In this document: positions 39,581 through 54,192 of the stretch, one piece after another
Layout of the letters: each line of letters begins with the position of its first letter
Position numbering within the stretch: position 1 is the stretch's first letter
Assembly (NCBI GenBank): GCA_965204375.1
Contig: OZ241986.1
Span: 5,088,001-5,152,000 of the forward strand
Direction: 5' to 3'
From: Candidatus Latescibacterota bacterium
GTDB taxonomy: Bacteria; Latescibacterota; UBA2968
DNA length: 64,000 nucleotides
Notes under the pieces: generated by a model
The model's database searches: none
What the model was told of the DNA's origin: nothing
What the model saw: the letters and a program-made list of their open reading frames with translations, nothing else
Made by a program: the position numbers and the translations under genes

Positions 39581-39601
39581 CCATTTCTCAGGAGCATTTT
39601 T

Positions 39602-40450
39602 ATGTCTAACCCATTATTACCCACGACCAATGCCGACGGCTTGCCCGTCGTGCCCATGAGTGAAGAGCAGAAATACACATTTGACCTCAAGGGATGGATC
39701 TGTTTGCCCGGCTTGCTCACCGAAGAAGAACTCATACCCGTGCGCGAACACCAGATGAAATTCCTGAACGAAGGCGAAACACTGCCCCCCGATGAACGCG
39801 ACAATCACGGCGGCGCATCGCAAATACTACTTGACCACCCGGTTGTGGTCGGCGTATTAAACGAAATCATCTCACATCAGGCACTGGCAACCGAAGACTG
39901 CTACGGATTTCGGTTCGACCATACGTACACCAGCCATCGACGAGTCGGTCACGACAACTTTCGCCCCCATGGCGGGGGTGGATACTTCAACTTCTGCGGC
40001 AACTCGCACATCTATCAAATGCAACCCGGGAAAATTCACGCGGGATTGATCCGCGTCGTCTGGGAATTGAACGAAGTACGAGAGGGCGACGGCACCATGT
40101 TCTTATCGGGTAGTCACAAAGCCGCATTCCCGCGCCCCGAAGCCCTGAGCGGACGCAAAAGCGACCTGTGGGACACGTATTCCTGCGTTGCGGGATCCGC
40201 AGTAATCTTCACCGAAGCCCTGTGTCATACGGGCACAACATGGGGCAACGAAGAATGGAATCGGTTGAGCCTATTCACCTGTTACAACACCGTAAATGCA
40301 AAATGGGGCAAAAAATGCCCGCCGCCCGAAGTCATTGCCGCCATGCCCCCAAAGCGACAAACCCTGTTCCGCGGCGTCTGGCACGGCATGCGCGAAATAC
40401 CGAATGTGAATAAGTACTACGACGAAGCTAATATCGGGCGCTACGTCTAA
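39602..40450 (+). CDS. phytanoyl-CoA dioxygenase (PhyH)-like protein
   Basis: QKYTFDLKGW, PHGG, GSHKA, AGSAVIFTEALCH. Confidence 0.75.
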   Translation: MSNPLLPTTNADGLPVVPMSEEQKYTFDLKGWICLPGLLTEEELIPVREHQMKFLNEGETLPPDERDNHGGASQILLDHPVVVGVLNEIISHQALATEDCYGFRFDHTYTSHRRVGHDNFRPHGGGGYFNFCGNSHIYQMQPGKIHAGLIRVVWELNEVREGDGTMFLSGSHKAAFPRPEALSGRKSDLWDTYSCVAGSAVIFTEALCHTGTTWGNEEWNRLSLFTCYNTVNAKWGKKCPPPEVIAAMPPKRQTLFRGVWHGMREIPNVNKYYDEANIGRYV

Positions 40451-40468
40451 TAAAAACAGGAGTAACCC

Positions 40469-41113
40469 ATGAACGTATTGATCACCTCGGGCAAAACAGC
40501 ATTGGCCCGGGCACTATCAGCGGATCTGGCAAACGAACACAAGGTCGTCCTGACAGATCTCGTGGAAGTAGAAACAGATTGCGACTTTGTTAAATGCGGA
40601 CTCGGACACGAAGGAGAAACCGAAGCCCTCGTACAGGGAATGGACGCCATTGTACACCTCGCGGAACTGCCCGAAGAACTAAAAAATGATGAACGGGAAA
40701 TAGACTTTCAGACCCGGTGTACTTATAACATCATGCACGCAGCCAAAGAAGAGAACGTACCCCATGTCATCTATATCAGTTCCCTCAGCTTATTCGCGTC
40801 ATGCGACCCCAACTGGAACGTCACAGAAGTCTGGGCACCGCGACCCACAACAGAATCGGGCCCTATGGCGCGCTACCTGGGTGAATTTACCTGTCGAGAA
40901 TTTGCGCGAGAGCATTCAGTCCGCGTAACCTGCTTGCGATTTGGAGATATAGACGGCGATGGCGACACCGCATTGACAATAGAAGACGCGGTAAAAGCCA
41001 TCGGCAAGGCACTCGTGACAGGCGGACCTATGTGGCAGGTATTGCACATGCAATCAGACGTTGAAAATGCACGGTTCTCTACAAACCAGGCAAAGCAAGC
41101 ATTGGGCCTTTAA
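40469..41113 (+). CDS. NAD-dependent epimerase/dehydratase family protein (degenerate)
   Basis: DAIVHLA, TYN, YISS, CLRFG; glycine-rich and YxxxK motifs are altered. Confidence 0.7.
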   Translation: MNVLITSGKTALARALSADLANEHKVVLTDLVEVETDCDFVKCGLGHEGETEALVQGMDAIVHLAELPEELKNDEREIDFQTRCTYNIMHAAKEENVPHVIYISSLSLFASCDPNWNVTEVWAPRPTTESGPMARYLGEFTCREFAREHSVRVTCLRFGDIDGDGDTALTIEDAVKAIGKALVTGGPMWQVLHMQSDVENARFSTNQAKQALGL

Positions 41114-41126
41114 TGACGAGGTAAAC

Positions 41127-41846
41127 ATGAAAGTCGTAATCTACGGAAGCAATGGCCAGTTGGGACCCCACGTAGTCAAAGCTCTGGAAGGACACGTAGA
41201 ACTGCGCTTGACGGACCTTGAGCCATTTGACACCCCGCACGAAATGATGATCGTAGATGTATCAGACCCTGATGCGGTCACGCGCGCGGCAGAGGGAATG
41301 GACGCGATCATCAACCTATCGGTCTTGCGCCCCCACCGACAGATCGCCTTTGACGTGAACACAATGGGATGTTACAACATCATGCGTGCAGCAGTCGCAC
41401 ACGGAATCCCGCGGGTCATCAACACAGGACCCCACTTCACCGTACAGGGCGCACCCTACGAGGCATTGGATTACCACATCGGTCCCGATGTCCCACCCAA
41501 ACCCAGCACAAATCTATACGCCCTATCCAAGGGCCTGGGACAAGAAATCTGCCGAATCTTTGCCGAGCAGAGCGACGTCTATGTATTGTGTTATCTATTC
41601 TACATCTTCTGCTATCACGACGACCTGTCAAGACCCGGACTGAACCGTCCATTTCTCGTAACATGGCGAGATGCGTCAGCGGCATTCTTGCCGGGCCTGA
41701 CCATCGACCTCAAAACACTGCCCTCGCAATGCGAAGTCTTCAACATCTTTGCAAATCGACCACACCAGAAGTTCTCAAACGAAAAAGCAAAGCGCATCCT
41801 GGGATGGCAGCCGAAAGATGACTTAGAGCATACGTATCTCAAATAG
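41127..41846 (+). CDS. NAD-dependent epimerase/dehydrogenase (uronate dehydrogenase-like)
   Basis: GSNGQLG, YALSK, AKRILGWQP. Confidence 0.82.
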   Translation: MKVVIYGSNGQLGPHVVKALEGHVELRLTDLEPFDTPHEMMIVDVSDPDAVTRAAEGMDAIINLSVLRPHRQIAFDVNTMGCYNIMRAAVAHGIPRVINTGPHFTVQGAPYEALDYHIGPDVPPKPSTNLYALSKGLGQEICRIFAEQSDVYVLCYLFYIFCYHDDLSRPGLNRPFLVTWRDASAAFLPGLTIDLKTLPSQCEVFNIFANRPHQKFSNEKAKRILGWQPKDDLEHTYLK

Positions 41847-41866
41847 GGGACTTTTTTCTTTGGTCA

Positions 41867-41891
41867 ATTCTGCAGACAGTGTCTGCAGAAT
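41867..41891. repeat. perfect 12-bp inverted repeat with 1-nt spacer
   Basis: attctgcagaca-g-tgtctgcagaat, further flanked by ttggtca/tgaccaa. Confidence 0.8.
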
Positions 41892-41965
41892 CTTCCCTGA
41901 CCAATATCGCCAAGATGTTGTCAAATGGTGTGGATAAAGTCAGAGCGCATCATTGAATTAAAGCG

Positions 41966-41996
41966 TGAACTGGCCTGGACCAGTTGTACCCCGTCC
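41966..41996 (+). repeat. dispersed hairpin element copy D
   Basis: tgaactggcctggaccagttgtaccccgtcc shares both ends with copy A. Confidence 0.8.
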
Positions 41997-42117
41997 CAAT
42001 GCAGATTCTTGCCGATTATACCCCGATGCTGTAATTTGTTAAAAAGGCCGCAAATGCCTATAATACGGAAACCCGAATTGATTGATAATTATATGATAGT
42101 CGATAGCGGAGACATAC

Positions 42118-43827
42118 ATGGCACTTCATAGTGCTGAGCAAAATGTCGCAAACAAGCAACTGTTGAATGCTCTGGTGGCGGATCCTACTCACCCCGAAAT
42201 TTCGCGGATCAATCCTCGCCGTCTCCTGGGGGCGTACTACACCCCCGACGCGCTTGCAAGCATTTTGGCAACCTGGGCACTCGCGCCTGGGAGAGGCAAT
42301 GTCCTGGACCCGAGCTTTGGCGGGTGTGCGTTCCTTAATGCAGCGACGACTATCTTGGCTTCCAGAGGGATTTCAGAACCCGGTGAGCGGGTCTTCGGTG
42401 TTGATGTGGACCCGTCATGTATGGAGTATGTACGCAAGGATCGGAATCTCGTCGAAAAGAACTGCATTATTCAAGACTTTCTCAGCTTGTCTCCGAAGGA
42501 TATATCCGGGGCACCGTTTCACGCCATAATCGGCAATCCCCCCTATGTGCGTCACCACTGGTTCAATGGAGCGACCCGAAAGGCAGGCCGGGTAGCCATG
42601 GCTGCCGCAGGAGTGACACTTCCCGAAACTGCGAGTGCCTGGGCATATTTTTTAATTCATACACTGAGCTTTATCGCGAAGAACGGCCGGCTCGCAATGC
42701 TCGTTCCGGAAGCAATCCTTCAGGCTGATTACGCCACTGTCGTCAGGGACTTGCTCACATCCCGTTTTGATCATGTTTGTCTGGTTCACATTCGCGACCG
42801 TCTATTTGAAGGTACAGACGAAGCCGTGGTCGCAGTCGCTGCTTCACAATATGGCGGTAAAAAAGGATCCTTGCGCGTTGAAGCTGTCGAGCGGTCTGAG
42901 GACTTAGAAGCTATCCTGAACACCCCAAAAGGCAGGATTTCTACTTCCCATTTGACAACCCAAAAAGGACGCCGCATTGACCCGCTGACTGTCCAATTGC
43001 TCGGCGAATTGGAGCAACATTCTGCAGTCAAGAAGATCTCCGATGTCGCAACCGTAAGCATTGGTTTGGTCACCGGTGCTAACAAACACTTCATCCGTAA
43101 TGCCAAAAACTTGAAACAACTTGGTATTCCTCACGAGTCTTGTGTACGACTAATTTCTCGTACGCGATGGCTATCAGGACTGGATTTTACTAAAGAGGAT
43201 CTCCAGAAACTCGTTGACGCTGACCAACAAGCCATCCTGGTTCAGCCCACGCCAGCGTGCGAAAATGCTCCCGGCATCAAGCAGTGGATTGCCGAGGGGA
43301 GGGAGGCCAGTATTCACGAACGATATAAATGCACCATACGCGATCCCTGGTTTCGTGTCGATCCAAAGCCCGTACCGGACGCCTTCGCTACATGCGCCCG
43401 TATGGGTGCTCCCTTGCTCGTCCTTAACCAGGCCGGTTGCCAATGTACCAATGCCCTCCATGCGATGTATTTGAATTGCAAAAGCGTTGCCTCTCTACCA
43501 GCCATCGCTGTGGGGTTCCTAACGAGTGTCGTGAGTGTCTGGGCCGAACTCCACGGACGTCGGTACGGAGGAGGCGTCTTGAAGATAGAACCCGGCACGC
43601 TGAATAGAACGCCGGTACCGATGGTTCAGCGTGCGGAAGACGCCTTTAATGAATTGAATAAACTCATTCGAGATGGGCAAGAAGCCGAAGCAAGAAAACG
43701 GGCGGACGATCTCGTTCTTGGAGATCAATTGGGCTTGCCAAAGAAAGATATTCAGCGGCTACAGCAGGCACACATCCAGTTGATGACCCAACGCCGTCCC
43801 ACCAGGAATGGAACCAGCCATGGCTAA
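42118..43827 (+). CDS. N6-adenine-type DNA methyltransferase (Eco57I/gamma-class-like)
   Basis: GAYYTP, LDPSFGGCAFL (motif I), GVDVD, GNPPY (motif IV), IGLVTGAN, GRRYGGGVLKIEP. Confidence 0.9.
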   Translation: MALHSAEQNVANKQLLNALVADPTHPEISRINPRRLLGAYYTPDALASILATWALAPGRGNVLDPSFGGCAFLNAATTILASRGISEPGERVFGVDVDPSCMEYVRKDRNLVEKNCIIQDFLSLSPKDISGAPFHAIIGNPPYVRHHWFNGATRKAGRVAMAAAGVTLPETASAWAYFLIHTLSFIAKNGRLAMLVPEAILQADYATVVRDLLTSRFDHVCLVHIRDRLFEGTDEAVVAVAASQYGGKKGSLRVEAVERSEDLEAILNTPKGRISTSHLTTQKGRRIDPLTVQLLGELEQHSAVKKISDVATVSIGLVTGANKHFIRNAKNLKQLGIPHESCVRLISRTRWLSGLDFTKEDLQKLVDADQQAILVQPTPACENAPGIKQWIAEGREASIHERYKCTIRDPWFRVDPKPVPDAFATCARMGAPLLVLNQAGCQCTNALHAMYLNCKSVASLPAIAVGFLTSVVSVWAELHGRRYGGGVLKIEPGTLNRTPVPMVQRAEDAFNELNKLIRDGQEAEARKRADDLVLGDQLGLPKKDIQRLQQAHIQLMTQRRPTRNGTSHG

Positions 43828-46141
43828 GTTCACTGTTGACACCCACTTGTTCCGAGAACTTGGGGAACTACTGGTCGGGCGCGACTCCACAGCCTTGATC
43901 GAACTGATCAAGAACGCCTATGACGCAGATGCGACCGAAGTCACTGTATATGGTGAGCGACTCGATAATCCAGAAGAGGGACATATCCTGGTAACGGACA
44001 ACGGCGTGGGCATGAATACGGAAGCGTTCACGAAAGGTTTTCTGAGAGTTGCTTCGCGTCTGAAGGAACTGGGCGAGCGGCGGTCCATCCTGTTTCAACG
44101 CCGTTACACCGGTGCGAAAGGAATTGGCCGGCTCGCTGCTCATAAGCTTGCGAAAAAACTCGAAATTGATAGCGTGCCACGGCTCTCTGAATTGAATGGG
44201 ACTCGAGAAGCCCTGAATGCCACAATAGATTGGGACGCGATTGAGCAGTACGAAACCCTGGATGAACTTGACTCTACCGATGCGATTCTTCTGAAAACGA
44301 AGCCTATACTCGAGAACACACATTCAGGAACGGCACTCCTTCTATCGCGGTTGCGACGAGCCTGGACCGAGACTGAGCGTGCCAGATTTTTGGCTGAGGT
44401 CCAATCATTTGATCCTCCGTCATTTCTGTGTGAGCCACTCCCGCGATCAATTATCGAAGAGCCATTGCTGTTCGACACACCAGTTGTACGAGACCAGGGT
44501 TCCGATGCCGAAACCTCTTCATTCCGGGTGAACCTTGAAGGGGACTTTGCCGCAGGTGAGGACTACTGGATGCTTATCGCAGAAATGGCTAATTGGATAC
44601 TGGAAATCCGGACGGATCCCAATAACGGACACATAGGCTTTGCAATTGCTCCTACGAAGAGTAAACTGAGGGAAAATCCCAAGATTGAGGCATTCTATCA
44701 CTCCATACCTCATCCTGCACCCGAGCGTGGCCCGCACTTCAATGCGCGTATTTTTGTGAGAGAGGGAGCTCCAAAACTTACCCGAGATCAGCGGGTATGG
44801 GCTACGAACACCAGTGGCGTTCGAGTTTATCTGGAAGGGTTTCGCGTCCTGCCGTATGGAGAATCGAAAGACGATTGGCTCTCCATTGACGCGGACTATA
44901 CGAGACGCCCACGGCAGCTCGAAATGCTCAAGGATATTGGACTCGGCACGGAAGTTTCCGACCCTGATATTGGGCTTGTTCGTGTACCGAGCAACAATTA
45001 CTTCGGTGCGATTTTTCTCACCCAAAACCGCTGTCCTGACATGCGAATCCTGGTGAATCGAGAAGGATTTGTCCCAGAGGCGAGTTTCGAAACCCTGGTG
45101 CAGTTGGTGCGAATGGGCATAGACTTCCTGACTCGCGAGCGTGCAGCAGAGTCCTACGAACGTCGCCAACAACGAAGGGAAAAACGGCGTAGGGGTTCTA
45201 TAAAGGACGATCCCCCTCAGAGTTCCACCGATATAAGTCAGGTGACCAGCGAAAATATTGAAGCACCTGTGTTTTTGGAGCGAATTCAGGAAGCAACACA
45301 TTTAGTAAAAAAAGCTGGTGAACACCTTACCGGCGATGACAAAGACGCGACTAATGCGGCTATGCAGAAGTTGGATGAGGTGAAAATACTCGCTGAAGAT
45401 TATGAAGATTTGATTTCAGAACACATGCTCTTGTATGTCCTCGCATCTGTGGGAACTCAGATGGCCGCGTTCGTACATGAGATCAACGCCTTACTCGGAG
45501 CATCACAAACCATTGAGCTGGTACTTGAAGGGGTACTTGCTGAGGATGGTCTATCGCTTGATGAAAGGCGCAGATTCAGGCGTACCTTAAATGTTGCGAC
45601 AGAACTCAAACGCAGTCTGGAACGTCAAGCCTCTTATTTGATGGATGTCGTGACTGTTGATGCACGCCGCCGCCGGTCTCGCCAACGTTTATGTGAACGA
45701 TTCGATGCTGCGGTTCGCCTTGTGCAGCATCAAGCAGAACGCCGAGGCATCAAAATTGACAATCGAATTCCTTCCGAATTGCGGTCTCCCCCGATGTTTC
45801 CCGCCGAGATTACAGCGATATTCGCCAATCTTCTGACAAATGCGGTTAAAGCCGCTGGAGAGGATGGACATATCTTCGCTTCAGCATCCAGTGGAGATGA
45901 TCAAGTTCGAATTCGCATCCAGAATACTGGTACTGCCGTCCAACTTGACGAGGCTGAGCGTTGGTTCAAACCCTTCCAGTCAACGACATCTGAAGTAAAC
46001 CCCGTGCTAGGCCAAGGGATGGGACTGGGACTGACCATTACACGGAACCTGTTGGAGAACTATGGAGCAGTTGTGAAATTCATCCAGCCAGATAGCCCGT
46101 TTGCAACTGCGGTCGAAATAGCCTTGCCAAGTAGGAGTTAG
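43820..46141 (+). CDS. MORC/MutL-like GHKL ATPase fused to a histidine kinase
   Basis: N-terminal ELIKNAYDADA, DNGVGM, GAKGIGRLA; C-terminal FVHEIN (H-box), NLLTNAVK, FQSTT, GMGLGL. Confidence 0.88.
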   Translation: MAKFTVDTHLFRELGELLVGRDSTALIELIKNAYDADATEVTVYGERLDNPEEGHILVTDNGVGMNTEAFTKGFLRVASRLKELGERRSILFQRRYTGAKGIGRLAAHKLAKKLEIDSVPRLSELNGTREALNATIDWDAIEQYETLDELDSTDAILLKTKPILENTHSGTALLLSRLRRAWTETERARFLAEVQSFDPPSFLCEPLPRSIIEEPLLFDTPVVRDQGSDAETSSFRVNLEGDFAAGEDYWMLIAEMANWILEIRTDPNNGHIGFAIAPTKSKLRENPKIEAFYHSIPHPAPERGPHFNARIFVREGAPKLTRDQRVWATNTSGVRVYLEGFRVLPYGESKDDWLSIDADYTRRPRQLEMLKDIGLGTEVSDPDIGLVRVPSNNYFGAIFLTQNRCPDMRILVNREGFVPEASFETLVQLVRMGIDFLTRERAAESYERRQQRREKRRRGSIKDDPPQSSTDISQVTSENIEAPVFLERIQEATHLVKKAGEHLTGDDKDATNAAMQKLDEVKILAEDYEDLISEHMLLYVLASVGTQMAAFVHEINALLGASQTIELVLEGVLAEDGLSLDERRRFRRTLNVATELKRSLERQASYLMDVVTVDARRRRSRQRLCERFDAAVRLVQHQAERRGIKIDNRIPSELRSPPMFPAEITAIFANLLTNAVKAAGEDGHIFASASSGDDQVRIRIQNTGTAVQLDEAERWFKPFQSTTSEVNPVLGQGMGLGLTITRNLLENYGAVVKFIQPDSPFATAVEIALPSRS

Positions 46142-46143
46142 CC

Positions 46144-47283
46144 TTGATTACAAAAAATAGTGAGAAGCCGTCCATTCTTGTCATTGATGATGAACCTGAC
46201 AAACTGCGCGATAAAGTCGCTATAGATGTAAAAGGCCGTGCAGTGACCGATGTATTCCATCCTCACGACATCGAAATCTCGGACTTGGAGAGTGCTGATA
46301 TAGTTTTAGTAGACTATAGGCTGGAAAATTGGCCAGAGCGAGACGCGCAGGTAGTATCACTCAGTCCCCCAAACGGAATAGCACTTGCGGTTGCGTTGCG
46401 AGAGAAGATGGACCAATCAAAAAAAGACAAATTAACGGCATTTGCGTTACATACGGGTCATATTGAAGATATTCAGGGGCGACTTCCATTAGCGACTGCC
46501 CAGCATGTTCGTGCACAACTGAACAATCTGGAATGGGTGTTTATGAAGAATGAGCCCCATCGTTACGACCAAATGCTCCTTCTTGCGGACGCTGTTCGGC
46601 AACTTCCTGCCCAATGGCCTGAGGATTCGCATAGCTCGGCTTCAATGGTGCAAAAGTTTCTCGATATGGATGAGGACGATAACTCGTTTGAACGCTGCTG
46701 GCGCGACGTTAAAGATTGCCGAGTGCCTGTTGAGGAGTTGTTCATGAAAGGGCACAGCATCCTATTTATTCGATGGTTGCTCCATCAAATACTGCCGTAT
46801 CCATGCTTTCTGTGGGCAAAGCACTGGGTTGCGGCGCGCTTTGGGATTACCGTTAAGGCTCTGGACAAAGTAGTTGAGGGGAATAGCCTTCTGGCGAAAG
46901 ACTTGGAGTCCATGCGCTATTCTGGGATTCTCGCGGGATTTTTAGGAGATAGGTGGTGGCGTGGTGCTATTGAGGACTACGCCTGGAATTTAGTAGAAGG
47001 ACACACAGCTAATGTACAGCAGTTGCGAGATGCTTTAGCCGAGCGTGCAGGTATGGATTTGGATCCAATCAAAGTCACTCCTGCAGTAGTTTGCGTAGAT
47101 ACGGACTGGCAGCCCGCCGCCGAGTTTCTATCGCCAATGACTGCCATAACCCTCCACCCCGACCACTGGCCCCCGTTTGCCGATTCAGCCTATATGGACA
47201 TCAAAATCGTTCGGGATGATTCTATTCTGAAATCAATGGTGGACCCACTTGACCAGCATCGCATTGATAGTGACATAGAATAG
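46144..47283 (+). CDS. receiver-domain protein with unknown C-terminal domain
   Basis: ILVIDDE, IVLVDY, NGIAL, LHTG, FMK; TTG start 2 nt after the kinase stop. Confidence 0.75.
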   Translation: MITKNSEKPSILVIDDEPDKLRDKVAIDVKGRAVTDVFHPHDIEISDLESADIVLVDYRLENWPERDAQVVSLSPPNGIALAVALREKMDQSKKDKLTAFALHTGHIEDIQGRLPLATAQHVRAQLNNLEWVFMKNEPHRYDQMLLLADAVRQLPAQWPEDSHSSASMVQKFLDMDEDDNSFERCWRDVKDCRVPVEELFMKGHSILFIRWLLHQILPYPCFLWAKHWVAARFGITVKALDKVVEGNSLLAKDLESMRYSGILAGFLGDRWWRGAIEDYAWNLVEGHTANVQQLRDALAERAGMDLDPIKVTPAVVCVDTDWQPAAEFLSPMTAITLHPDHWPPFADSAYMDIKIVRDDSILKSMVDPLDQHRIDSDIE

Positions 47284-47293
47284 GACGACGAGA

Positions 47294-48022
47294 ATGGCTG
47301 GGTTTCGCTTTCTTTCTGCTGAACTAATCCAAGAGACCGAAGTGCTGACGACCTTGTCAAGGAAGTTCCTTGAACCGAATAGTAGGGAGAAGGTTTTCCC
47401 CAGTTTCCTGAGCAATCTCCGAAACATTGGTGGAAAACCCGAAGAAAGAGTTTATTCTTTAACGCTTCAATGCCTTCGCACAATACCAAGCGATCAGTAC
47501 GACAGGAACCCAGGTAAAGAGATATATGCGGTTATTTCAGGAACTTGGGATTTGCGAAGATTAGGGAAGCGAGAGATAGAATTTTGTGGGATCGCTTCGA
47601 CGAGGATCGAGTTGTACGCTTCGGAAAATCCTGATAAACGCCTGGCAATGTGGCGTCTGGAACTGGGTGCTGAGGACAGCCCGGGCTGCTATGTCCACGC
47701 TCATATTCTGGGAGACTCCGCTGATCCTCCATTTCCGAAGTGGGTGCCCATTCCCAGATTGCCCAGCATCTTCATTACTCCGATGAGTGCTATTGAGTTC
47801 GTCCTGAGTGAACTCTTTCAACGCGATTGGGCTCAAGTGATAGCCAGTCGTAATAAAAATGTAAACCGTTGGCGTAACATTCAAACAGATCGGCTTCAGA
47901 AGTTGTTCTCATGGTACAATGACCAAATGGAAAACGCGGATTCCTCTCCGTGGATGGCATTAAAGGAGGCGAAGCCAAAAAGCGACATATTTCTTCCACA
48001 ATCCGGAAGACGAAGATCGTGA
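47294..48022 (+). CDS. hypothetical protein with HxH motif (DUF2290-like pattern)
   Basis: WRLE...HAHILG...PRLP...TP...EFVL...W; last gene before the terminator. Confidence 0.65.
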   Translation: MAGFRFLSAELIQETEVLTTLSRKFLEPNSREKVFPSFLSNLRNIGGKPEERVYSLTLQCLRTIPSDQYDRNPGKEIYAVISGTWDLRRLGKREIEFCGIASTRIELYASENPDKRLAMWRLELGAEDSPGCYVHAHILGDSADPPFPKWVPIPRLPSIFITPMSAIEFVLSELFQRDWAQVIASRNKNVNRWRNIQTDRLQKLFSWYNDQMENADSSPWMALKEAKPKSDIFLPQSGRRRS

Positions 48023-48053
48023 CAAATTAGTTAGAGCCACATCTTGTCGCACA

Positions 48054-48093
48054 AAGACCAATCAAGATCATTGTTTGATTGGTCTTATTTTTT
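48054..48093 (+). terminator. intrinsic terminator closing the four-gene operon
   Basis: aagaccaatcaa/ttgattggtctt 12-bp stem followed by atttttt. Confidence 0.7.
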
Positions 48094-48236
48094 GAATAAA
48101 TAATCTTATACGCAAAAATGCCATTGCAAACCCCTGTTTTCACCCTTAAATTGCAGACATTTTTTAGTTCGTATCTCCGCACATCTGCTGCCATTTCTCA
48201 CCAATAGTCACAACTCCCGTAATAAGGAGAACAAAA

Positions 48237-49466
48237 ATGAAAATCCGACCCGACCTCGTTCCCGAGACCGAGGGGAACAACCTCGAAGTCATCCAACTCA
48301 CGGATGAATCGGTCCCCTCATCACACATTTACATGGAAGCGCAGATCTTCACGCCCGACTCCCAGCGGCTAATCATTCACCGGTCTGCACATCCCCACGG
48401 CTCTGACCCAAAAGACCCCGAGCACCAGTTCCTCGTCTGCAACATAGAAGACCATTGCAGCTTAACGCCAATCACCACCGAACTCGGAACCACGGGACCA
48501 TCCATCTCCCCAGACGGCGAATGGCTATACTACTTCGTCAACGAAACAGAACCCGGGGGCGGACGCCTAACGCTCAAACGCGTCAAAATGGACGGAACGG
48601 AACGCGACACCATCTATGTCTTGGACCACGACATACCCGACACCAGTTTCAGATTGAGCCGACCGTATCCCCTCTCAACCATCTCATCCGACGGCAAGCG
48701 CATCGCCATCTCGGGATTCCTTGGCGACGGCAAAACCGCAGGCGCGCCCTGGGGCCTCCTCGTCTTTGAAATTGAGGAACCATCTGTACGCCTGATCTTC
48801 CACGGCCCCTCCTGGTGCAATATCCACCCACAATACACGCGCCAAACAGACCCTGTCGCCTCCCATGACATTATGATCCAGGAAAACCACGGCAACACCG
48901 CATCGCCCGACGGCAGCGTAGAAACGCTCGTCAGCGGGCGGGGTGCAGACATCCACCTGATCCGGGACGACGGCACGGCACTGCGCGACTTTCCCTGGGG
49001 ACGGGATGGAAATGAATTCTGCCAGGGACATCAATGCTGGCAGGGACAAAGCGACATCGCCATCACCAGCACGAGTACACGCGAACCCGCTGAAAGACAA
49101 CTCATCTCGGGACGCGCCGTGGCTCACGTCGGAGATGAAGGCATCAACACCCCGGGCGGATGGCGAAACGACCTGTCCCGCTCCTTCGACACACCCGACT
49201 TCTGCCACTTTGCAACAGACATCGACGGGAAACGGCTGATTACGGACGCAGGTCCGATAGATGCGGGCGGAGCCGTCTGGCTATTCGACCTTCCCGAAGA
49301 AGAGGAAGGCGCGCTCGCAAATGCGCGCAAAGTCGCAGACCCCGGATCCTCCTGGCAAAAACACACGCACATCCATCCCTTCCTCTCCCCGGATGGACGA
49401 TCGGGCTTCTTCAACTCCGATGAAAGCGGCATACTACAGGCGTATATGGTGCGCGGTTGGTCTTAA
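48237..49466 (+). CDS. beta-propeller protein (oligogalacturonate lyase/TolB-like)
   Basis: HIYME..FTPD, ISPDG, GHQCW, HIHPFLSPDG, FNSD. Confidence 0.7.
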   Translation: MKIRPDLVPETEGNNLEVIQLTDESVPSSHIYMEAQIFTPDSQRLIIHRSAHPHGSDPKDPEHQFLVCNIEDHCSLTPITTELGTTGPSISPDGEWLYYFVNETEPGGGRLTLKRVKMDGTERDTIYVLDHDIPDTSFRLSRPYPLSTISSDGKRIAISGFLGDGKTAGAPWGLLVFEIEEPSVRLIFHGPSWCNIHPQYTRQTDPVASHDIMIQENHGNTASPDGSVETLVSGRGADIHLIRDDGTALRDFPWGRDGNEFCQGHQCWQGQSDIAITSTSTREPAERQLISGRAVAHVGDEGINTPGGWRNDLSRSFDTPDFCHFATDIDGKRLITDAGPIDAGGAVWLFDLPEEEEGALANARKVADPGSSWQKHTHIHPFLSPDGRSGFFNSDESGILQAYMVRGWS

Positions 49467-52401: not shown

Positions 52402-52590
52402 GAACAGCCTGAACATATATTTTTCCTCACACCATAACACTATATGCCTATTGATATTCACTCCGCCATAAAATATATTGCGATTAAGTGATATAATAGA
52501 GAGGGACACTGGGGAAATTATGAGGTGGAGGTCATGGAGGCCTACGTTGTGCTACGGCACCAGGCCCCCTCGCCGTCAGGGAGTCTCAAC

Positions 52591-54192
52591 ATGACGACAA
52601 CAGCCATGCGTTTCTTCAACACCGCCGGCCCCATCAAGGCAGAGATGCACTACCACATTCCGCCCCTGGCCCGGCTCGACGTCAATGACCTCCTGATGCT
52701 CATCCAGCAGGAAAAGTACTTCGTCCTGCACGCGCCTCGCCAGACCGGCAAGACCTCCGCGCTCCTATCACTAAGGGACGACCTCAATGCCAGCGACGAG
52801 TTCCGCTGTGCGTACGTCAATGTCGAAATCGGACAAGCGGCACGGGAAGACGTGGGCGCGGCCATGCGGGCGATTCTCAGCGCGCTGGGTCGTGCTGCAC
52901 GCCACACGCTGGACGACCTGTTTGTCTCTCAAGTCTGGCCCAGCATTCTCGATAGCGCCGGTCCCAACGACGCGCTGGGGGAGACCCTTGCACGCTGGGC
53001 CGAATCGGACGCCAGACCGCTGGTGCTCATGATCGACGAGATTGACGCGCTGATCGGCGACACCCTGCTGTCCGTGCTGCGACAATTGCGCGCAGGCTAC
53101 CCGGATCGCCCGCGTCGGTTTCCACAGAGCGTGATCCTGTGTGGTGTGCGCGATGTGCGCGATTACCGCATCCAATCTTCCGCCGAGAATGCCATCATCG
53201 CCGGGGGCAGCGCGTTCAATATTCGCGCCGAGTCCCTGCGGCTTGGAGACTTCTCCCGCGACGACGTCGAATCACTGCTGGAGCAACACACCGCAGAGAC
53301 CGGACAGGCATTCGCCGAGGAGGCGCGCGCCGTGGTCTGGGAACTGACCCAGGGCCAACCGTGGCTGGTCAACGCCCTGGCCTACGAAGCCTGCTTCAAG
53401 AACAAGGCCGGACGCGACCGCAGCCAGTCAATCACCGCCGACGCCATCCAGGACGCCCGCGAACAATTGATTCGCCGCCGCGAGACACACCTGGATCAAC
53501 TCACCGACAAGCTCCAGGAGGAACGGGTGCGCCGGGTAATCGAACCGCTACTAAAAGGATCCGATGAAGCTGGCTCGTTTGCCGACGACGACCTGCAGTA
53601 CGTACGCGACCTGGGCCTCGTGCGCACCGACAATCCAATTGCCATTGCCAACCCAATTTATCGCGAGGTAATCCCGCGCGACCTCACCTACACCACCCAG
53701 GCGGGGTTTCACCATGACCCGACCTGGTACATTGATGCTAACGGCATCCTGCAAGTAGGCAAGCTGCTGGCCGCGTTCCAGGCGTTTTTCCGCGAGCACT
53801 CCGAGCACTGGATAGAGCGGTTCCAGTACAAGGAAGCCGGTCCGCAGTTGTTGCTACAGGCATTTTTGCAGCGCATCGTCAACAGCGGTGGGCGGATTGA
53901 ACGCGAATATGGCCTGGGTCGGATGCGGACGGATTTGCTGGTGGTATGGCCGGTGGGCGGGGATTCCAGCAGGATACAGAAGGTCGTCATTGAGTGCAAG
54001 CTGCTGCACCGGAGTCTGGAACAGACATTGCGCGACGGGCTTGAGCAAACACGCGCCTACATGGACCGCTGCGCGACGGTGGAAGGACACCTCGTGCTCT
54101 TTGACCGCACCGAGGACAAGTCGTGGGACGACAAGGTGTACCGCCGCGACGAAACCGAAGGCGGCGCACCGGTCACGGTGTGGGGGATATGA
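52591..54192 (+). CDS. AAA-like ATPase with C-terminal PD-(D/E)xK-like domain
   Basis: RFFNTAGP, APRQTGKT, MIDEID, REYGLGRMRTD...IECK. Confidence 0.85.
   Translation: MTTTAMRFFNTAGPIKAEMHYHIPPLARLDVNDLLMLIQQEKYFVLHAPRQTGKTSALLSLRDDLNASDEFRCAYVNVEIGQAAREDVGAAMRAILSALGRAARHTLDDLFVSQVWPSILDSAGPNDALGETLARWAESDARPLVLMIDEIDALIGDTLLSVLRQLRAGYPDRPRRFPQSVILCGVRDVRDYRIQSSAENAIIAGGSAFNIRAESLRLGDFSRDDVESLLEQHTAETGQAFAEEARAVVWELTQGQPWLVNALAYEACFKNKAGRDRSQSITADAIQDAREQLIRRRETHLDQLTDKLQEERVRRVIEPLLKGSDEAGSFADDDLQYVRDLGLVRTDNPIAIANPIYREVIPRDLTYTTQAGFHHDPTWYIDANGILQVGKLLAAFQAFFREHSEHWIERFQYKEAGPQLLLQAFLQRIVNSGGRIEREYGLGRMRTDLLVVWPVGGDSSRIQKVVIECKLLHRSLEQTLRDGLEQTRAYMDRCATVEGHLVLFDRTEDKSWDDKVYRRDETEGGAPVTVWGI

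Follow-up and report, generated by a model that had tools for sequence, protein, structure and literature searches.

In a 64,000-nt stretch of contig OZ241986.1 (the window, in whose positions all coordinates are given), we found four same-strand open reading frames (ORFs) that probably form one self-contained, horizontally mobile defence cassette, in which restriction-modification (RM)-like genes are combined with a two-component pair. The cassette, at 42118-48022 in the ORF listing, encodes a DNA methyltransferase (g1), a MutL/MORC-like ATPase joined to a histidine kinase (g2), a response-regulator-like protein (g3) and a protein of unrecognised fold that is the candidate effector (g4). The four genes are inherited together across phyla and went in as a single insertion. 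An earlier note on this DNA had proposed an uncharacterised operon; that label does not hold, as an in silico description of the class appeared in 2021 (PMC8011034) and a relative, Ambrosia of Pseudomonas aeruginosa, was validated in 2025. The cassette is not an uncharacterised kind of system; it differs from Ambrosia, the validated example of the kind, by lacking an XRE gene and by carrying g4 in place of an HNH nuclease.

Four tightly packed genes inserted as one island

The genes follow one another on the + strand as g1 (42118-43827), g2 (43820-46141), g3 (46144-47283) and g4 (47294-48022). Since the g2 start common to relatives is the ATG at 43820 (their consensus begins MAxFTVD), g1 and g2 overlap by 8 nt; counted from 43808 instead, the g2 ORF would be 777 rather than 773 amino acids (aa) long. 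Gaps of 2 nt and 10 nt separate g2 from g3 and g3 from g4. The g1 ATG is preceded by GGAG, 8 nt upstream, and g3 starts at a TTG codon with AGGAG 6 nt 5′ of it. An intrinsic-terminator-like hairpin at 48054-48086 (+; 13-pair stem, 7-nt loop, then ATTTTTTG, a T-run) closes the operon, and the terminator scan overall was at shuffle level (8 found, 8.4 expected). Genes for a pectate lyase, an aldo-keto reductase, an Ldh_2 protein and epimerases lie to the left, and PD40 and S9 peptidase genes to the right. The earlier note had described just this, four coupled genes closed by a terminator and inserted among catabolic genes.

The insertion itself was visible in relatives with an empty site. In three genomes of the same genus (G015, G004 and G008; 91-93% nucleotide identity), the flanks (left, 39600-41837; right, from ~48225-48229) lie 3-6 bp apart, and the inserted island is therefore 41838-48228 (6.39 kb, unstranded), which takes in the cassette and its own non-coding DNA on both sides. 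Alignment of the junctions showed no clear target duplication. A contig from a sponge-metagenome RNA library (run X22) also represents the empty site, joining 41837 to 48234 with 11 other letters between, and a 7,012-nt RNA-library contig (run X7; window 41500-48050) carries, from a copy that is ~94% identical, the left flank plus the four genes. With occupied and empty forms both present among the RNA libraries from a single study, natural populations are polymorphic for the insertion. Pieces of the cassette were present in two further RNA libraries; as such contigs cannot exclude DNA carry-over, they give only a weak hint of expression. We detected g3 in 5 of 41 related genomes, the window's own included, and in 0 of 20 outside the genus.

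Compared with a congener that carries the cassette at the same site, nucleotide identity was 84-93% over g1-g2, as in the flanks, versus 66-82% over g3-g4, with the break falling at the g2/g3 junction; g3 and g4 therefore travel and diverge together. This difference between the two halves suggests an arms-race-like mosaic.

A DNA methylase coupled to a soluble MORC-like kinase

The product of g1 (569 aa) is an Eco57I-type N6-adenine DNA methyltransferase with gamma-class order (motif I, NPPY, target-recognition domain) and its NPPY motif at residue 140. It matched N6_Mtase (E-value 1e-16), Eco57I (7.2e-8) and M_Eco57I_C (7.4e-21) in Pfam, and MTase_II (2.9e-94) in PADLOC.

The g2 protein (773 aa) comprises a MutL/MORC-like GHKL ATPase domain, a middle region, a DHp domain with H557 and a kinase CA domain. 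Its Pfam matches were to HATPase_c_3 (residues 28-151, 8.3e-18) and HATPase_c (residues 668-774, 1.3e-20). When a profile of 28 relatives was compared with PDB sequences, ZraS was matched over DHp and CA (1.1e-16) with H557 aligned on the ZraS H-box, and the N-terminus matched MutL (9.5e-6), MORC2 (5.6e-5) and also PMS2. In these 28 sequences H557 and E558 of the FVHEIN H-box were invariant, as were E32, N36, D64, G66, G68, G102-K104-G105-G107, N678 and G735-G741, and the ATP-binding motifs of the N-terminal GHKL domain are intact. Residues ~190-540 between the two modules were strongly conserved as well (e.g. G337-G351, N417-F421). The G1 box of the kinase reads NxG, like that of 3a0t, a chain of the sensor kinase ThkA, itself an active kinase. 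Peak 19-residue hydropathy was 1.33, which indicates no transmembrane segment. The two GHKL modules, intact H-box and soluble character ascribed to this gene from sequence were all upheld. The N-terminal GHKL domain further resembled the BbrUII/HgiDII restriction enzymes (NCBIfam, 1.6e-21, residues 7-191; PADLOC REase_II, 3.9e-16); the BbrUII match covers 176 of 659 profile positions and, at 76.6 bits, is far under the family cut-off of 550 bits.

A receiver protein and a conserved fourth protein

The g3 protein (379 aa) has a receiver at residues ~7-160, followed by a helix-turn-helix (HTH)-like, Trp-rich C-terminal region at ~160-379. In the structure model the N-terminal part adopts a receiver fold, and D15, D16, D57 and K135 were invariant in 28 diverse relatives, in agreement with the phospho-acceptor positions that had been pointed out before. 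The C-terminal 220 residues contain the invariant R210-W211, P218-Y219-P220, W271-W272 and W342-P343, together with a conserved AARLxI...L segment that resembles a helix-turn-helix. DUF4423 was weakly matched by 9 of 64 g3 members (best E-value 0.004) and a MarR_2 match was also weak; from sequence pattern, this suggests an HTH-like region. The whole protein matched no Pfam, NCBIfam or PADLOC family; its C-terminus had no match in the protein atlas and no effector family in the three collections. When g3 and g4 were searched as sequence profiles against PDB sequences, the rows returned were at chance level (E-values 0.62 and 0.72).

The g4 protein (242 aa) stands in the position of Ambrosia's HNH nuclease. 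We found no Pfam family for it at E≤10, HNH models included, and none in NCBIfam or PADLOC. Its structure model was confident (predicted local distance difference test (pLDDT) score 88) and matched no known fold, with no nuclease among the rows of the fold comparison. The structural check thus gave a receiver fold for g3 and no fold match for g4, and the PADLOC check identified g1 (MTase_II) and g2 (REase_II) and left g3 and g4 without a family; the statement that no nuclease is evident stood throughout. The earlier note had also named an HxH effector, which did not survive comparison: H135-A-H137 is present in the window's g4, H135 is conserved, and position 137 is Q in most relatives. Instead, an acidic residue (E123), H135 and R155 were kept across both g4 groups, the close family and the distant one detected by profile. 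The family amounts to 559 clusters at 50% identity. From position and conservation, we infer that g4 is the effector.

Several further leads on g4 were followed. DUF2290, indicated in the atlas by one cluster (15% of members, score 0.87), was rejected, as it was matched by none of 59 members of the family and by none of 5 divergent g4 ORFs. No fused form of g4 was found among proteins of 425-2000 aa, which is weak evidence. One 363-aa protein (P0041) on a 2,020-bp metagenome contig joins g2 residues 1-174 (90% identical) in frame to g4 residues 48-240 (69%); we rejected it as a natural g2-g4 fusion and regard it as an internal in-frame deletion, a decayed cassette or an assembly chimera. A predicted g3-g4 complex scored 0.00 in two runs made without controls and is evidence for neither outcome.

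Gene order is conserved across phyla

Searching with a g4 alignment yielded 66 candidate stretches, from which 38 loci were confirmed. Judged by record title, they span roughly twelve groups at phylum level: Latescibacterota, Poribacteria, Chloroflexota, Desulfobacterota-type lineages, Gammaproteobacteria, Binatia, Gemmatimonadota, Acidobacteriota, Rhodothermales, Myxococcota, Planctomycetota and Actinomycetota. The triad g2-g3-g4 was collinear in 36 of the 38, the exceptions being L037 and L038, both rearranged and from one genome, and an Eco57I-type methylase adjoined the triad in 36 of 38. Upstream methylases were identified in 24 loci by tblastn and in L036 by Pfam; 10 loci had theirs downstream, the rearranged L038 had it on the opposite strand, and none was found next to the triad in L034 and L037. 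Downstream methylases were distant from g1 (23-36% identity; in the frame-broken L041, short pieces reach 52%), and in this arrangement too the genes abut or overlap (e.g. 8534/8534 in L029). The check put forward earlier, on conservation of the four-gene order, thus gave a conserved order of g2-g3-g4 with the methylase on either side.

Some copies had decayed. In L024 (5926-8000), from a Binatia metagenome-assembled genome (MAG), g4 is split by an insertion of ~2.1 kb; L037 and L038 are two rearranged copies in one Vicinamibacterales MAG; and L041, in a Solirubrobacteraceae MAG, has several frame breaks.

Relatives of the kinase reached further. At least 584 of 600 scanned stretches encoded full-length g2 relatives, and among 79 new loci tblastn detected g3 and g4 in 21, g3 only in 10 and neither in 48. 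In 37 of these 48, by manual count, the kinase was still followed by ORFs of ~340-440 aa and ~194-286 aa, of which 31 pairs were aligned for profile comparison. The second ORFs after distant kinases proved homologous to full-length g3 (99.3%, E-value 1.7e-20, 334 columns), and the third ORFs to the g4 core (95.5%, 1.4e-8, 73 columns). Five third-gene and two second-gene products from distant loci had no Pfam family. A ~618-aa ORF after one distant triad is an Eco57I-type methylase, and a Vsr gene follows the triad in Pseudomonas sp. 21. On profile evidence, the triad belongs to a much larger superfamily.

Cassettes of this build were also carried on plasmids. Plasmid pTH2c of Rhizobium sp. TH2 has the methylase, a kinase (40% identical), g3 (E-value 1.5e-31) and g4 (3.3e-14); in plasmids tblastn gave no g4 match at 1e-3, and profile comparison then recovered this Rhizobium homologue. 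On pTH2c (L042, 10121-11050) a gene annotated as encoding a GIY-YIG nuclease family protein starts 13 nt after the triad and the methylase is divergently transcribed, as if this variant had gained a recognisable nuclease. Four-gene look-alikes were present on Clavibacter plasmid pCCa and on a Paraburkholderia plasmid, the latter with an HTH gene 5′ of its methylase.

Comparison with known systems

Ambrosia (AbrR-AbrA-AbrB-AbrC-AbrD) of P. aeruginosa consists of an XRE protein, an N6-adenine methylase, a HATPase kinase, a receiver protein with a winged HTH and a type IV HNH nuclease, and blocks phages (van den Berg et al., bioRxiv 10.1101/2025.09.30.679545). The same preprint reports that defence needs every gene and the receiver Asp (D60A), that expression rises on infection, and that phages grown on AbrA-expressing cells stayed sensitive to the system; in the view its authors prefer, the two-component pair switches on transcription of the RM-like genes upon infection (bioRxiv 10.1101/2025.09.30.679545). 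The cassette in the window likewise unites in one operon an N6-adenine methylase, a HATPase-type kinase (in Ambrosia, a 'sensor histidine kinase/HSP90-like ATPase'), a receiver protein and one further protein, so that RM-like genes would work with a two-component pair, D57 being invariant here where D60 is essential there. At the domain level g2 resembles AbrB, with two HATPase domains and a DHp domain with H557 on the ZraS H-box. As to AbrC, g3 has the receiver fold with D15/D16/D57/K135, and a winged HTH is suggested by the AARLxI...L segment and the weak DUF4423 and MarR_2 matches. The last gene is unlike that of Ambrosia, being the conserved g4 and not HNH, and so is the distribution: Ambrosia is described from across the Gammaproteobacteria (76% Pseudomonadales; bioRxiv 10.1101/2025.09.30.679545), while this clade occurs in Latescibacterota, Poribacteria, Chloroflexota, Acidobacteriota, Gemmatimonadota, Planctomycetota, Myxococcota, Actinomycetota and others. 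Domain, residue and fold evidence bore out the phosphorelay architecture and gene content first proposed for the operon, and the defence role, by analogy with a system of the same general build that blocks phages, is plausible.

The second close parallel is the set of HEF_HK (PF19191)/Response_reg_2 (PF19192) pairs, in which HATPase_c_3+HEF_HK+HATPase_c kinases showed 91.6% linkage in 644 regions with RM genes enriched, all in silico (Bellieny-Rabelo, Pretorius and Moleleki 2021, PMC8011034). Shared with those pairs are the soluble kinase of HATPase_c_3, DHp and HATPase_c, adjoining receiver and RM genes, a receiver-like protein that has no known output domain, links to DNA methylases and paraMORCs, and evidence that is in silico only. 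PF19191 in g2 and PF19192 in g3 gave no match at E≤10, and PF19192 was found nowhere in the whole genome; PF19192 was weakly matched by 8 of 64 g3 relatives (best E-value 0.062; cut-off 27 bits), and a Paraburkholderia relative had a sub-threshold PF19191 match (0.0079). True PF19192 proteins occurred in 3 of 400 gammaproteobacterial genomes, were 555-617 aa long and had no significant profile similarity to g3 or g4, for which reason we rejected the idea that canonical Response_reg_2 of that length is g3 and g4 (379 + 242 aa) fused. The HEF_HK class goes mostly with C5 methylases and Vsr/HNH_2, whereas the present class goes with Eco57I-type adenine methylases and the conserved third protein of the triad.

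paraMORC GHKL ATPases were placed in RM operons and proposed as DNA-looping parts in an account that leaves receivers unmentioned (Iyer, Abhiman and Aravind 2008, PMC2292703), and a 2026 preprint still terms their defence roles 'proposed'. Like them, g2 has an N-terminal GHKL domain with intact ATP motifs (closest to MutL, MORC2 and PMS2), sits beside a DNA methylase and moves laterally; unlike them, it is fused to a DHp+CA histidine kinase, has a receiver partner, and is accompanied by no helicase or recognisable nuclease. Detocs (DtcA-DtcB-DtcC), the second validated case of a two-component system used in defence, is an anti-phage phosphorelay from kinase to receiver that requires the kinase His and receiver Asp and has modular effectors (Rousset et al., bioRxiv 10.1101/2023.01.24.525353). 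It features a TPR sensor, a buffer receiver and a receiver-fused effector, usually an ATP nucleosidase, with no methylase and no GHKL/MORC sensor; here, by contrast, the putative effector g4 is a separate protein and the island holds no stand-alone buffer receiver. MADS was rejected as a relative, as only g1 matched one of its models (mad2, 2e-13), and MANTIS likewise, as its preprint names no GHKL, kinase sensor or receiver.

Proposed mechanism and alternatives

In the mechanism that we propose, the MORC-like module of g2 would detect infection or foreign DNA, probably via ATP-driven clamping and perhaps together with the translationally coupled methylase. Detection would lead to autophosphorylation of g2 at H557, from which the phosphate would move to D57 of g3. 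Phosphorylated g3 may then raise, via its HTH-like region, the expression (or activity) of the methylase and g4. As the effector, g4 would most likely attack nucleic acid, possibly in a methylation-dependent manner, because it occupies the position of Ambrosia's HNH nuclease and keeps the acidic-His-Arg core.

A number of observations weigh against this reading. Each step of the phosphorelay, like the gating of transcription and the part of g4 as effector, is our inference. Kinship with Ambrosia is proposed from architecture, and the cassette has no counterpart of the XRE (HipB-like AbrR) gene. Pfam, NCBIfam and PADLOC recognised no nuclease or other effector domain in it, and no fold matched g4, a candidate effector by position and conservation. 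The HTH of g3 was read from a sequence pattern and weak matches only, and residues 189-220 of the g3 model fall under a pLDDT of 50. We did not find g3 in phage records or viral contigs, and in a survey of 110 flanking ORFs (the two nearest per side at 34 of the 37 loci used, from 173 ORFs within 5 kb) most were ordinary, with matches to 87 Pfam families, each present in 3 ORFs at most, no recurrent neighbour and no consistent defence-island setting. In favour of a defence role, some of these ORFs did match defence models: three were Type I MTase matches, two were Type I S, three were AbiLi/AriA/mad3-like ATPases and others occurred once, counts in which one ORF may be matched by more than one model.

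An alternative is classical restriction with post-translational control, the model of the earlier note: the methylase would mark self DNA and so protect the host, the MORC-kinase would recognise unmethylated sites, and the phosphorelay would directly activate a pre-made g3/g4 complex with no transcription step. The resemblance of the g2 N-terminus to BbrUII/HgiDII, the DNA-looping role proposed for paraMORCs in RM (PMC2292703) and a methylase that is nearly always adjacent, overlapping or abutting the other genes all fit such a scheme. We nonetheless consider it unlikely, since the BbrUII match is partial and far under its cut-off, the HTH-like segment of g3 is typical of transcription-activating regulators, and, as far as the Ambrosia preprint describes, AbrA methylation gave phages no protection and the genes were induced on infection. 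The sharp divergence of g3-g4 from a congener whose methylase is ~90% identical also fits poorly with g3/g4 and the methylase reading one DNA site.

Somewhat less likely again is that the cassette has no part in immunity and is a selfish addiction module, or an epigenetic circuit that governs host or element genes through a kinase sensing methylation and a regulator binding DNA. Carriage on plasmids, insertion and deletion without an integrase of its own, flanks made up mostly of housekeeping genes, the lack of a recognisable nuclease and the likeness of g3 to a DNA-binding regulator would all agree with this. However, g4 is strictly co-inherited and a plain regulator would not need it, the related Ambrosia strongly protects against phages, and the decayed copies (L024, L037/L038 and L041) argue against strong addiction; RM-like addiction and defence are, besides, compatible. 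That the copy in this genome is a decaying or inactive remnant seems very improbable: relatives do carry insertions, rearrangements, frame breaks and an internal deletion, but here none of the four frames is interrupted, no catalytic or phospho-acceptor residue has been lost, ribosome-binding sites and terminator are in place, and the X7 RNA-library contig spans a closely similar copy, DNA carry-over being possible there. A mobile defence cassette of the Ambrosia kind is the reading we prefer.

Other features of the locus

A candidate sigma-70-like promoter (TTGTTA-17-TATAAT, 10 of 12 consensus matches) lies upstream of g1 at 42036-42064 (+); because the promoter scan was not enriched over shuffles (8 found, 7.1 expected), it is a candidate only. 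The 280 bp 5′ of g1 contain no ORF of ≥80 aa, hence no XRE gene was seen there, and no island ORFs beyond g1-g4, and so no second receiver gene, were listed. An Rfam search of 41500-48500 returned no match.

In the non-coding ends of the island (41861-41893, 41917-42000 and 48081-48157) are short sequences with 1-3 other copies in the genome at 82-97% identity, one of them palindromic (the TCTGCAGACAGTGTCTGCAGA region); such sequences also occur at many places in congeners and resemble terminator hairpins or small repeats dispersed between genes. In three congener loci with the cassette at the same site (L005, 1269-2563; L006, 1046-2564; L008, 287-2581), an extra 1.3-2.3 kb that is absent from the window lies between left flank and methylase. 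This segment has ORFs of 291, 451 and 196 aa, the first of which matched no Pfam family at E≤1e-5, and could be cargo or a lost mobility gene. Further away, 4.3 kb downstream of the island, a 555-aa ORF at 52525-54192 (+) matched AAA_22, AAA_35 and NPHP3_N (a STAND/NACHT-like ATPase) and may be an unrelated defence-type nucleoside triphosphatase.

Implications

Phosphorelay-gated, methylase-linked systems have only just joined the validated phage defences. The loci described here extend the class far past Pseudomonas, to many uncultivated phyla and to plasmids, with a core that is the triad of MORC-like kinase, receiver-HTH protein and ~240-aa protein. The third protein of the triad matches no known fold or family. 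It is possible, although on balance we doubt it, that the g4 family is a new enzyme fold with an acidic-His-Arg (+ Gln) core and as a rule supplies the effector in a very large superfamily of MORC-kinase phosphorelays linked to methylases, of which HNH-bearing Ambrosia would be a side branch. If so, the activity of g4, for example as a methylation-dependent nuclease, would define how the whole class kills or blocks invaders. Rhizobium sp. TH2 with its plasmid pTH2c is a cultured, tractable carrier, and the MORC-like sensor ties the class to how plant and animal MORC ATPases recognise foreign or unmethylated DNA.

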